The position numbers were made by a program, and so were the translations under genes. DNA of 64,000 nt from Alphaproteobacteria bacterium (GTDB lineage: Bacteria; Pseudomonadota; Alphaproteobacteria; CAAGCB01; CAG-977). Positions 52,754 to 64,000 of the stretch are shown piece after piece; position 1 is the stretch's first letter, and each line of letters starts with the position of its first letter. The notes under the pieces are model-generated. The model ran no database searches, was not told where the DNA came from, and was given only the letters and a program-made list of their open reading frames with translations. Location: positions 15,276-79,275 of the forward strand of contig JAFVAT010000032.1 in the NCBI GenBank assembly GCA_017480385.1. Reading direction: 5' to 3'.

Positions 52754-53464
52754 ATGGAAAAAAGTGTGTCAAAAGCGTCTGTTCGCAAAAATACAAATAA
52801 AACTGCCGGCTCCGGAGGGAAGCATGCGGAAGGCGGGCGTTTGGCTACATTTATGTGGCTGTCCCGATTTTTCAATATCTTGTGTTTTGTTTTGGTGTTT
52901 TCCGGCTCTGTTTTGGCGCTGTCTTTGCTTCATATAACGAAAGAAGCCGAAGTGAATTCTGTCTTAGTAACGGCGCCGACATATTCCGATAATCTGGCTT
53001 ATTTTGAACCGTTGCATCCGGATATGCCGACCATGGATATTTTGGCGGAAATGTTTGTTCGTCTATATATTACAAGCCGATATAATGTTTGGACAAACAT
53101 ACAAGAAATGCGCGTTGCATGGGGGCCCGGAGGAATAGTGAGCCGTTTATCAACATGGGACGTGTATGATAATTTTTGGGAAACAGAAGCAAAGCGATAT
53201 CTTCCCGATGAAAGCATGGAAATACCTCCCGAAGTAATGATAGATACGGATATTAAGCGGATTATTAAGGAGGGTTGGAACAGTTGGCAGATCTTTTTTG
53301 ATACGCGTAAAATGGAAACAACAATCAGTCCGCCGGTCATAGATCATTGGATCGCAACGATACAGTTCCGATATTATGCGTCGAATGCTGTTATGGCTAC
53401 ACGTTTGCGCAATCCGATGGGATTTACGGTGACGCAATATCATTTAGCACGTCAAAAGCAATAG
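52754..53464 (+). CDS. VirB8/TrbF-like T4SS inner-membrane protein, paralog 1
   Basis: Short cytoplasmic N-terminus, single TM (FFNILCFVLVFSGSVLALSLL), ~180-aa periplasmic domain ending in NPMGFTVTQYHL (VirB8 NPxG-F-x-V-x-x-Y signature). Confidence 0.55.
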   Translation: MEKSVSKASVRKNTNKTAGSGGKHAEGGRLATFMWLSRFFNILCFVLVFSGSVLALSLLHITKEAEVNSVLVTAPTYSDNLAYFEPLHPDMPTMDILAEMFVRLYITSRYNVWTNIQEMRVAWGPGGIVSRLSTWDVYDNFWETEAKRYLPDESMEIPPEVMIDTDIKRIIKEGWNSWQIFFDTRKMETTISPPVIDHWIATIQFRYYASNAVMATRLRNPMGFTVTQYHLARQKQ

Positions 53465-53477
53465 CTTACGGAGAAAG

Positions 53478-53675
53478 ATGATGAATATAAAAGGATTAGG
53501 AAAAGTGGCTTTAATTATCGGCTTTTGTGCGGTTTTAAACGCTTGCGGTTCGATTTATGAAAAAGAGCCGGTCGGCGTCGGTCCGGATATTTCGGAATTA
53601 AAACGCTCCCCTTGTGCCTGTATGTTATTGAAACTTCCTGCCGAACTGCCGGAATGGATATCGGTTAACGGATAA
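53478..53675 (+). CDS. Small lipoprotein (VirB7/CagT/ComB7-like by size and position)
   Basis: 65 aa, lipobox LNAC. Sits between the two VirB8-like genes. Confidence 0.4.
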   Translation: MMNIKGLGKVALIIGFCAVLNACGSIYEKEPVGVGPDISELKRSPCACMLLKLPAELPEWISVNG

Positions 53676-63059: not shown

Positions 63060-63079
63060 AATATGAAAGAAAAATAATT

Positions 63080-64000
63080 ATGAGTACAGATTCTTTTCAG
63101 GTTTTAAAATCAACATTACGTTATTTATCTTATTGGTACGAACAGGATAATGTGGAAGAGATTTCCATTAATCGTCCGGATGAAATCTGGCTGCGTCTGC
63201 GCGGGCGCAGGGCCCACCCTTGGGCCTGCCAGCAGGATAAGAATCTGTCCAGAATGTATCTGACGGATATTATGCATATTATTGCGAATACATTTGAATT
63301 GCCGTTTGATCCGGAACAAGGCTCTCCCGCTGTTTATGCAACATTGCCGGGCGATCACCGCTTTACGGGGATTGCGGGTAAAAACGTGATGTATGATAAC
63401 GAAGACCTGACCGGCGGGATTGCAATGTGCGTTCGTGTTCATTCCGATGATATTAAATTCGGATTGGACGCTTATGGGTTAAAATCAGGTGAAAGACTTC
63501 AAAAACTGAACAAGTTAAAAGAGGTTGAAAATCCCGAAGATCCGTATGAACGTTTGATTTTGTCAATTAAACGCGGTGATCATATTTTAGTTTCAGGGGC
63601 AACGGCAACCGGTAAAACGACTTTTTTAAATAACCTGCTGACGATTTTAGATTCTCATAAGCGCGTTATTACGATTGAAGATACACGTGAATTAATCGTT
63701 CCTCACCCCAACCATGTTCACTTGGTTTTGTCCCGTACTGAACAAACCAATACGATGACATACCCTAAGCTGATTGACTTGGTCGTTCGTTTTACGCCGG
63801 ACGCTATTATCGGCGGCGAAATTTCAACAGCGAATGCCGGGGCGCTTTGGGAATTAATGGGATCAGGGCATGATAACTGTTTCGCAACGATTCATGCCGA
63901 AAATTCCGAGGCGGCGTATAAAGCCTTTACCGATCGTATTCTGCACTGTTATCCGACGATTGACCGTGAAAAAACGATCGCCGAAATGCATGATAAACTG
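63080..64000 (+). CDS. VirB11/TrbB-family secretion ATPase (3'-truncated by the window edge)
   Basis: N-domain VEEISINRPDEIWL, Walker A GATATGKTT, Asp box RVITIEDTREL, Walker B/Glu box DAIIGGEI, His box GHDNCFATIHAENS. Confidence 0.7.
   Translation, partial: MSTDSFQVLKSTLRYLSYWYEQDNVEEISINRPDEIWLRLRGRRAHPWACQQDKNLSRMYLTDIMHIIANTFELPFDPEQGSPAVYATLPGDHRFTGIAGKNVMYDNEDLTGGIAMCVRVHSDDIKFGLDAYGLKSGERLQKLNKLKEVENPEDPYERLILSIKRGDHILVSGATATGKTTFLNNLLTILDSHKRVITIEDTRELIVPHPNHVHLVLSRTEQTNTMTYPKLIDLVVRFTPDAIIGGEISTANAGALWELMGSGHDNCFATIHAENSEAAYKAFTDRILHCYPTIDREKTIAEMHDKL

Follow-up and report, generated by a model that had tools for sequence, protein, structure and literature searches.

A chromosomal type IV secretion core operon with paired virB8 genes, a SPOR-tailed VirB9 and a giant repeat-laden VirB10 in an uncultured gut alphaproteobacterium

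A stretch of 64,000 nucleotides from the genome of an uncultured alphaproteobacterium (Alphaproteobacteria bacterium, GenBank assembly GCA_017480385.1, contig JAFVAT010000032.1, positions 15,276 to 79,275 of the forward strand; hereafter, the window) ends in six genes which constitute one operon for a type IV secretion system (T4SS) of the VirB/VirD4 type (P-type). Their products are the core that spans the envelope and one ATPase. The operon combines two virB8 paralogs flanking virB7, a virB9 with a C-terminal SPOR domain, a giant virB10 filled with short repeats, and virB11. We consider it likely that this is a vertically inherited chromosomal operon of plasmid-lineage origin which forms part of a split system for contact-dependent delivery.

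The module (positions 52754-64000) consists of six open reading frames (ORFs) on the plus strand, in the order virB8a-virB7-virB8b-virB9-SPOR-giant virB10-virB11, with intergenic spacing of 12-20 nt and an ATGA overlap shared by the virB9 stop and the virB10 start (Table 1). Pfam profile hidden Markov models (HMMs) of the VirB8 (PF04335, twice), VirB9/CagX (PF03524) and TrbI (PF03743) families match the expected ORFs with scores exceeding the gathering thresholds, and the T2SSE family (PF00437) was likewise recovered on virB11 (E = 5e-21, above the cut-off). For each gene, the identity is supported by HMM matches, by homologous VirB proteins of plasmids or by the fold that is predicted for it. 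Thus, the original prediction, which was made from the sequence alone and described a chromosomal VirB8-VirB7-VirB8-VirB9-VirB10-VirB11 core beside housekeeping genes, is borne out by HMMs, homology and fold alike, and the duplicated B8, SPOR-fused B9 and hyper-repetitive B10 that it listed are all real according to Pfam, AlphaFold2 (AF2) and autocorrelation analyses.

At the 5' boundary of the operon, a terminator-like hairpin closes the gene of a DEAD-box helicase. The module had been said to start 100 bp after the helicase terminator; this distance is correct when counted from the helicase stop codon, and the hairpin itself ends 50 bp before virB8a. At the 3' side, where the window edge cuts virB11, the remaining secretion genes had been suspected to follow. 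However, on metagenome contigs whose module sequence is 100% identical to that of the window, virB11 is followed after 140 nt by an aminotransferase gene on the opposite strand, and because this convergent gene comes next, the operon ends at virB11.

Table 1. Features of the T4SS operon and its 5' boundary, in window coordinates
Feature	Position	Strand	Description
DEAD-box helicase	51226-52653		Upstream of the operon; Pfam
Terminator-like hairpin	52678-52704	+	11-pair stem followed by a T-rich tail; closes the helicase gene, 5' boundary of the operon
virB8a	52754-53464	+	236 aa; Pfam VirB8, E = 4e-10; C-terminal motif NPMGF
virB7	53478-53675	+	65 aa; lipobox VLNAC; conserved motif LKRSPCAC; homology by phmmer
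virB8b	53692-54465	+	257 aa; Pfam VirB8, E = 2e-21; C-terminal motif NPLGF
virB9	54478-56016	+	512 aa; CagX/VirB9, E = 1.5e-11, plus C-terminal SPOR
virB10	56013-63059	+	2348 aa from ATG 56013; alternative GTG 55992 gives 2355 aa
Repeat array in virB10	56664-61787	+	Residues ~218-1925; 51-nt (17-aa) period; consensus PDGTVVDxNGNVIGRVL
TrbI/VirB10 C-terminal domain	62106-62699	+	Residues 2039-2236; Pfam TrbI, E = 5e-30; preceded by a linker
virB11	63080-64000	+	First 307 of 325 codons; Walker A motif GATATGKTT; gene crosses the window edge

To place the operon among other genomes, relatives were collected by a pattern scan based on a VirB9 alignment, with one genome per species; the scan yielded 142 relatives, the best 80 of which were examined (L-numbers below denote related loci). 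Nearly all of these 80 are uncultured 'Alphaproteobacteria bacterium' metagenome-assembled genomes (MAGs) from guts and rumens (sources include human, Hadza, rabbit, horse, sheep, yak, buffalo and deer), and Acetobacter sp. CAG:977 and Rhodospirillaceae UMGS1296 are among the carriers. The order virB8a-virB7-virB8b-virB9-giant virB10-virB11 recurs in essentially all 80 loci, with VirB9 identity to the window protein ranging from 82% down to 41%, and in the sub-clade of the window the upstream DEAD helicase, isochorismatase and hydrolase genes are conserved as well. In comparisons with three species ~75-80% identical in DNA, the ratio of nonsynonymous to synonymous substitution rates (dN/dS) is 0.01-0.19 across all six genes (0.07-0.09 for the whole of virB10), these ratios being rough because dS, at 1-2.6, is near saturation. 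We are aware of no relevant literature on T4SS in the RF32, Rs-D84, CAG-239 or Enterousia gut alphaproteobacteria, as our search returned nothing.

Marks of a mobile element were also sought. A Pfam scan of the other sizeable ORFs of the window (7 of ~42 of which had no match at all) recovered no family of relaxases, integrases or transposases, and the 64 kb contain no tRNA gene, in agreement with the earlier remark that no relaxase, integrase, tRNA or insertion sequence was visible before the module. All other window ORFs with a Pfam match are metabolic or housekeeping genes, including PfkB, UvrC, UvrB, the phosphotransferase system (PTS), FeFe hydrogenase, rubrerythrin, IspDF, Dus, TrkA, HflX, ComEC, BatA-D-like VWA proteins and PFK. 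The GC content of the module, 43-48%, is unremarkable given the window range of 34-55%. Conserved order and neighbours, normal GC content, lack of mobile-element marks in the window and purifying selection together argue that the operon is ancestral rather than an island, a choice that the original prediction had left to synteny, and it is syntenic across ~80 species-level genomes. On these genomic comparisons, the operon is old, vertically inherited and functional, and neither a recent island nor a decaying remnant.

Two further observations concern the carriers. Records titled Limosilactobacillus gorillae, Holdemanella biformis and 'uncultured Lactobacillales' (L018, L033, L035 and L042) also contain the locus, and these bins are probably mislabelled or contaminated. 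In a distant sub-clade (38 loci within L030-L075), a conserved protein of 520-540 aa is encoded on the same strand and its gene ends 4 bp before virB8a (for instance, L053, 6508-8124). It has one N-terminal transmembrane (TM) segment, no Pfam match and no counterpart in the window, and is likely to be an additional part of the T4SS, specific to that sub-clade and missing from the lineage of the window.

The two VirB8 proteins are 28% identical. VirB8a is a fast-evolving paralog (dN/dS 0.11-0.14) and a bitopic inner-membrane protein, and VirB8b is the conserved, canonical copy. In phmmer searches, the top partner of VirB8a is the VirB8b of the window itself (85 bits), followed among the relatives noted by an Erythrobacter VirB8 (55 bits); the top relative of VirB8b is a Microvirga VirB8 (104 bits). 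The NPxG motif is invariant across 19 VirB8a orthologs and is also kept throughout the VirB8b family. Single-sequence searches of solved structures with the VirB8 proteins produced matches too weak to be informative, and ortholog profiles were needed. The VirB8b profile matches the Bartonella and Brucella VirB8 structures with E = 1e-11 to 1e-6, and the VirB8a profile recovers TrwG as well as the VirB8 structures of Bartonella and Brucella at 1e-11 to 1e-8, compared with 0.018 for rickettsial RvhB8-II (4o3v).

The 65-aa ORF between the two virB8 genes has no Pfam match. It is homologous to small lipoproteins whose genes precede virB8 on plasmids of Microvirga and Erythrobacter (phmmer E = 1e-8 and 4.5e-6, respectively), and we found the gene in 82 related loci. 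Given its lipobox and its homology to plasmid lipoproteins at the VirB7 position, this ORF is identified as virB7.

In VirB9, a signal peptide precedes the VirB9/CagX domains (residues 81-329), which a low-complexity linker joins to a SPOR domain at residues ~429-512 (nt 55762-56013). The Pfam SPOR match is modest (23.8 bits, cut-off 21), and a search of the PDB with the VirB9 sequence gave no match. However, the SPOR region is conserved in 14 orthologs, and an AF2 model of the last 125 residues, built with 13 orthologs, adopts a beta-alpha-beta-beta-alpha-beta fold with a predicted local distance difference test (pLDDT) score >90, for which the top PDB matches by Foldseek are the SPOR domains of CwlC, RlpA and DedD. 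The VirB9 of the Erythrobacter plasmid is alignable over residues 41-509 of the window protein, its SPOR-like end included. The SPOR tail thus appears to have been inherited from the plasmid T4SS lineage and is hence not unique to this locus. VirB9 is present in one copy per related locus, with one possible exception: the MAG that holds L006 contains a second virB8a-virB7-virB8b-virB9 cluster (L037, positions 1212-4341 of the 7.4-kb contig CALDOX010000031.1). Its VirB9 has 456 aa, is 60% identical to the window VirB9 over residues 7-392 and apparently lacks SPOR, and no virB10 follows. Either the contig was mis-binned or the cluster is a genuine, though partial, duplication, and the latter would recall the VirB9 and VirB8 duplicates of the Rickettsiales vir homolog (rvh) system.

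The protein encoded by virB10 had been described as VirB10-like and 2355 aa long. It is indeed a giant TrbI/VirB10 protein, but ATG 56013, which yields the ATGA overlap with virB9, is the more likely start and 2348 aa hence the more likely length. An exact-sequence look-up of the GTG-start version returned no match, those of VirB8b and VirB9 succeeded, and the called gene begins at this ATG. The motif SSSEQY.KKSNR is conserved in a short cytoplasmic tail, which is followed by one TM helix (nt ~56067-56132), by an immunoglobulin-like domain of the PapD/ASH type at residues ~87-194 (nt ~56271-56594) and by a CxxC motif. The assignment of the PapD-like domain comes from an AF2 model, with CEP192 and HYDIN among its solved-structure matches. 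Downstream of the repeat array and a linker lies the TrbI domain, whose PDB relatives are ComB10 (1.6e-13), TrwE (6e-9) and CagY (1e-6); the NCBIfam models of ComB10 (NF038092) and VirB10 score 105 and 89 bits against cut-offs of 300 and 220, respectively.

The repeat array consists of ~100 beta-hairpin repeats of 17 residues, ~1,700 residues altogether. Autocorrelation peaks at 17, 34 and 51 aa and the spacing of the motif demonstrate a strict 17-residue period. In Pfam, the array matches Bflower_2 (E = 5e-127, in 23 stretches) as well as Bflower and DUF3659; the beta-flower fold was reportedly named in 2023 from AlphaFold models. Matches to YD/RHS repeats (Pfam RHS_repeat, E = 1.5e-20; TIGR01643, E = 1e-28) are much weaker than that to Bflower_2, and an Rhs/YD cocoon was considered as a possible reading of the repeats. 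For the first 15 of the ~100 units, AF2 gives regular hairpins with pLDDT of 83-92, a result that pertains to secondary structure and confidence only. In public records, giant VirB10 proteins of this kind are named 'hypothetical', 'DUF3659 domain-containing' or 'TrbI/VirB10 family', and our literature search found no paper on DUF3659 or beta-flower combined with VirB10.

At the DNA level, the 51-nt copies are 60-79% identical to each other, the longest repeated pair spans 298 nt at 70% identity, and there are no long exact repeats. The cagY gene is known for recombination-driven size switching. A CagY-like recombination rheostat was considered for virB10 and discarded in view of the age and divergence of its DNA repeats. 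The array is old and maintained by selection on the protein, and recombination-driven size switching is unlikely.

An exhaustive HMMER search with the C-terminal domain against 1.8 billion cluster representatives returned matches which, when better than ~1e-40, are mostly 1,400-2,400 aa long, and weaker matches of 500-630 aa. Because of this sharp length divide at ~1e-40, the giant form is taken to be limited to the gut lineage. At the related loci, VirB10 sizes are 2,040-2,680 aa. One relative (L067, 2577-6416) encodes a VirB10 of only 1,280 aa, so that the array can fall to about half of its usual size. In four distant species (L076-L079, ~11600-20500), the giant virB10 is present as two adjacent ORFs of ~1,150-1,530 aa and ~1,410-1,515 aa, of which the N-terminal one contains both TM helix and PapD-like domain, and the C-terminal one TrbI; since it is seen in four genomes, the split looks like a genuine gene fission and not a sequencing error. 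Two local features of the window gene also stand out. Near its 3' end, a CAA/CAG tandem repeat (62941-62996) encodes poly-glutamine within an acidic tail past the TrbI domain, and such an acidic poly-Q C-terminal extension is unusual for VirB10. The GC skew across virB10 (0.25-0.32 at 55000-63000) is the highest in the window and probably stems from the Gly/Asp/Val-rich repeat codons rather than from replication strand bias.

For virB11, TIGR02788 (VirB11) ranks first in NCBIfam (E = 5e-40), with a score of 137 against an equivalog cut-off of 250, a shortfall partly due to truncation at the window edge; the complete protein of 325 aa is encoded on the identical contigs (L001-L003). It is the most conserved of the six proteins, 97-99% identical between species at dS ~1, with dN/dS of ~0.01.

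The other parts of the machine were sought using as probes the VirB2-B11 and VirD4 proteins of the two closest plasmid systems. As stated in the original prediction, which saw no VirB1-VirB6, VirB4 or VirD4 genes upstream of the module, phmmer searches with the plasmid VirB2, B3, B4, B6 and VirD4 proteins found nothing in the window, and the VirB4, VirB6-like and VirD4-islet proteins of related MAGs have no homolog in the window either (phmmer). In relatives, VirB4, the universal marker of T4SSs, is encoded upstream of the module at the distant loci L057 and L079 (phmmer, confirmed by Pfam), and VirD4 a few kb upstream of the module at L017 and L019 (confirmed by Pfam) and adjoining at L090. 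VirD4 has 1,840 homologs in the protein collection, many of them ~83% identical to that of L017. In MAG UBA6324, the VirB9 of which is 77% identical to the window protein, VirD4 resides on a different contig, in an islet with three tandem TrbL/VirB6-like paralogs flanked by flagellar and housekeeping genes; the first paralog exceeds the Pfam TrbL/VirB6 threshold (30 versus 25.9 bits) and the other two match the first by BLASTP (E = 1e-15 to 1e-28). In another MAG, the VirD4 islet is located ~3.5 kb from the module, and the intervening genes are exactly those that precede the module in the window. The window lineage has lost the adjacency of the VirD4 islet and the module. Thus, the system, which had been taken for stripped-down, is split rather than reduced, because relatives carry VirD4, VirB6-like and VirB4 genes elsewhere, and VirB4, VirB6 and VirD4 would, by extension from close relatives, be present in the window organism as well.

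The surroundings of these islets hold further genes. The accessory genes located between virB4 and virB8a at L057 and L079 include no VirB6-like polytopic protein according to Pfam and hydropathy, and have no homolog in the window. The virD4 gene always resides in a small conserved cluster of unknown genes (L086, 5286-13882; L090, 7730-13839), with two paralogous membrane proteins of ~350-370 aa, one of which has a weak NERD nuclease-like match (E = 0.001, below the cut-off), a 350-aa protein, a 144-aa protein and a DUF1189 gene. The genes of this cluster are candidate substrates, chaperones or immunity factors.

Elsewhere in the window, comEC is found where it had been reported, 20 kb from the module (31475-33598, minus strand). 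A 554-aa ORF without Pfam match (34994-36658, minus strand), with an aminotransferase gene and uvrB as neighbours, is located in the sole strongly AT-rich patch (34-37 kb, GC 0.34 versus ~0.48) and may be a recent acquisition or encode a surface protein. FeFe hydrogenase (8503-9951, minus strand), a PTS protein in which EIIA, HPr and EI are fused, accompanied by an EIICB permease (10147-14479, plus strand), and rubrerythrin (14510-15085, plus strand) indicate a fermentative, oxygen-sensitive lifestyle.

Taken together, these observations suggest the following scenario. The ancestor of the operon would have been a VirB/D4 lineage carried on alphaproteobacterial plasmids, already equipped with a SPOR-tethered VirB9 and, as far as sequence similarity goes, with an apparently similar VirB10 domain. 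In the gut lineage, three changes would have followed: duplication of virB8 around virB7, insertion of ~1,700 residues of 17-residue hairpins between the PapD-like and TrbI domains, and breakage of the gene set into islets, with the VirB6-like paralogs, VirD4 and VirB4 elsewhere. In known systems, VirB10 reaches across the envelope from one membrane to the other, the 'arches' at the inner membrane are made of VirB8, and the machine is driven by VirB11 together with VirB4. In solved minimized cores, VirB7, VirB9 and VirB10 are each present in 14 copies (PMC9371333). By analogy with VirB systems, the outer-membrane core complex is expected to be assembled from VirB7, VirB9 and the VirB10 TrbI domain; both VirB8 paralogs would reside in the inner membrane, as would the N-terminal TM helix of VirB10, and VirB11 would energise assembly or transport. 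The SPOR domain of VirB9 is expected to anchor the core to denuded peptidoglycan strands, and the repeat array probably makes the core larger in the periplasm or at the cell surface, much like CagY in the Cag system, where parts of CagY and CagX pack into a periplasmic ring (PMC9371333). The ~1,700 extra residues per VirB10 cannot stretch across a periplasm of normal width, implying that they would be either packed in a large periplasmic ring or cage or displayed outside the cell; both arrangements are speculative. The complete machine, including VirD4, would deliver its substrates by contact into another cell, be it a bacterium, a protist or a host cell, and delivery of protein is favoured over that of DNA because the coupling protein is retained and no relaxase was seen.

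Several points weigh against this scenario. In the searches of solved structures, none of the matches listed fell on the repeats and all fell on the PapD-like domain, and any assignment of location and shape to the array (a ring in the periplasm, a fibre on the surface, or beads on a string) is speculative. VirB4, VirB2, VirB3, VirB6 and VirD4 are ascribed to the genome of the window on the evidence of relatives, and the selection estimates were obtained at nearly saturated dS. We found no substrate or effector, and relaxases were sought in the window and the related loci only, so that DNA transfer is possible. A bolder proposal, which we put forward tentatively and regard as rather doubtful, is that a plasmid-type VirB/D4 system was independently rebuilt into an rvh-like archipelago, and that the hairpins of multiple giant VirB10s form an unprecedented large periplasmic or surface structure tethered by SPOR-VirB9, constituting a new 'expanded' class of T4SS for contact with partner cells. 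If this is true, the system would be central to the lifestyle of the gut and rumen clade, with bacteria, protists or host epithelium as partners.

Other explanations were weighed against the proposed vertically inherited delivery system. That the module belongs to a still-mobile integrative and conjugative element (ICE) or integrated plasmid, and that its machine conjugates DNA, is suggested by its closest sequence relatives, which are plasmid systems located beside MobA/MobL relaxases, primases and topoisomerase III, and by the VirD4 kept in relatives, with Pfam matches named 'conjugative DNA transfer'. However, the lack of mobile-element families and tRNA in the window and the normal GC content speak against mobility; the chromosomal neighbours are the same across many species, with T4SS genes scattered among flagellar, translation and repair genes, and the identity of VirB11 at dS ~1 fits long vertical descent, making this explanation unlikely. 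We consider it quite unlikely, too, that the machine no longer secretes and that the core, with its giant VirB10, now acts chiefly in surface adhesion or as a scaffold of the envelope: the secretion domain is far smaller than the repeat array and the SPOR domain of VirB9 is predicted to bind peptidoglycan, but VirB11 is under the strongest constraint of the six genes, VirD4 is ubiquitous in the clade and VirB4 is present in relatives. The conserved ATPases argue for an active transporter.

A ComB-like system for DNA uptake, or a T4SS for DNA release, working with the nearby comEC, would account for ComB10 being the best solved relative of the VirB10 C-domain and for the ComB10 model outscoring that of VirB10. 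This is very unlikely, given that both scores are far below their cut-offs, that VirB11 is the most conserved gene and that VirD4 is found in relatives; moreover, comEC is a common housekeeping competence gene which is unlinked to the operon in related loci. Finally, the module could be a member of the rvh family by descent, such that rvh would extend outside Rickettsiales or gut bacteria would be its source. The shared gene order, the scattered islets, the three tandem VirB6-like paralogs and the faster evolution of B8a, as in RvhB8-II compared with RvhB8-I, are all compatible with such kinship. Nevertheless, we regard it as highly improbable: the Rvh proteins score lowest or nearly so, neither RvhB8a nor RvhB8b is matched, B8a is closest to its own B8b and retains NPxG, the B8a profile detects TrwG and Bartonella VirB8 at 1e-11 to 1e-9 versus 0.018 for 4o3v, and the VirB10 and VirB9 of R. 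typhi have no PapD-like domain, array or SPOR.

The proposed delivery system would be of interest in several respects. Duplicated VirB8, multicopy VirB6 and scattered islets are regarded by rickettsiologists as the rvh signature, the purpose of which is unknown. A second rvh-type layout, independently reached in bacteria of a different lifestyle, would provide a comparative handle on why these duplications are selected. The operon is also the first context found in which the beta-flower/DUF3659 repeats, only recently named and without an assigned function, are part of a defined molecular machine, and it offers a second giant, repeat-laden VirB10 for comparison with CagY. Because the carriers are common in human and livestock guts and uncultured, a conserved secretion system is a lead on their lifestyle.

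Among known systems, those of the Erythrobacter aureus YH-07 plasmid (NZ_CP031358) and Microvirga sp. VF16 plasmid pMVF16-3 (NZ_CP069357) are the closest by sequence for every component, and supply the nearest annotated relatives of VirB11 (~40% identity). Their proteins score 240-247 bits for VirB11, 160-217 for VirB9, 98-128 for the VirB10 C-domain and 38-104 for VirB8a and VirB8b (88-104 for VirB8b). For VirB11, B9, B10 and B8b, these scores are two to sixteen times those of the homologs from Paracaedimonas, Magnetospira, Rhizobium and R. typhi. The plasmid systems have in common with the window the B7-B8-B9-B10-B11 order and a VirB9 with a SPOR-like C-terminus, and the beta-rich stretch after the TM helix of their VirB10s resembles, by eye and in sequence similarity only, the domain modelled as PapD-like. 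They differ in having a contiguous B2-B3-B4-B5-B6-B7-B8-B9-B10-B11-D4 operon beside a MobA/MobL relaxase, a single VirB8 and a VirB10 of 529-590 aa without repeats, whereas the window operon has two VirB8s and a 2,348-aa VirB10, is chromosomal and has its other genes elsewhere.

In layout, the closest counterpart is islet C of Rickettsia, described by Gillespie et al., with the order virB9a-virB8a-virB7-virB8b-virB9b-virB10-virB11-virD4, in which the upstream VirB8 is divergent and the other rvh genes are scattered (PMC2653234; PMC4676284). The order in the window is that of the inner six genes of islet C, including polarity, with the divergent B8 first and faster-evolving; a chromosomal archipelago of islets and, in a close relative, three VirB6-like paralogs complete the likeness. 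When the R. typhi Rvh sequences (Fig. S9 of PMC2653234) were compared alongside five other systems, they gave 92 bits for VirB11, 14 for VirB9, 36 for the VirB10 C-domain and no match for VirB8a or VirB8b, and were the lowest or near-lowest scorers among the comparators for every component. Moreover, RvhB8-II has lost NPxG, which both window copies keep, and the window module is neither preceded by a second, truncated VirB9 nor followed by virD4. Rvh systems are further marked by duplicated VirB9 and VirB4, by three to five VirB6 paralogs and by the lack of VirB5; in the gut loci, VirB9 is single apart from the possible second cluster L037, and the three VirB6-like paralogs come from one relative. 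Neither a PapD-like domain nor a repeat array is present in R. typhi VirB10 (~480 aa), and the rickettsial insert lies inside the C-domain, in contrast to the N-proximal array in the window; R. typhi VirB9a (250 aa) and VirB9b (~160 aa) have no SPOR tail. The hosts differ as well, those of rvh being obligate intracellular and that of the window a fermentative gut anaerobe with a relative (L086) carrying flagellar genes. Given the low Rvh scores, the pairing of B8a with B8b, the weak match to 4o3v and the kept NPxG, the resemblance to rvh appears to be architectural and convergent rather than a matter of descent.

CagY, a VirB10 homolog of ~2,000 residues of which only the C-terminal part is VirB10-like, the rest being a large repeat region, is part of an 'expanded' core complex that includes a periplasmic ring (PMC9371333). 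The window VirB10 shares this trait, with 2,348 aa, repeats N-terminal to the VirB10 domain and a C-domain that detects CagY. However, its repeats, 17-residue beta-flower/DUF3659 hairpins, are unrelated to those of CagY and diverged at the DNA level, and genes of the CagM, Cag3 and CagT type are absent from the operon in the window. As for ComB, an echo of which had been perceived in the gene order, the B7-B8-B9-B10 block and ComB10 as the nearest solved structure of the B10 C-domain do support it. The echo is nonetheless weak, as the ComB10 equivalog score reaches one third of the cut-off, the window has VirB11 and relatives have VirD4. ComB systems are not known to include VirB11 or VirD4.

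The operon had also been said to match no described T4SS. In fact, its parts have counterparts in the gene order of rvh, the SPOR-tailed VirB9 of plasmids and the giant VirB10 exemplified by CagY. As far as we can tell, what is new here is the lineage-specific giant beta-flower VirB10 and the independent rvh-like layout, both in a widespread group of uncultured gut bacteria.

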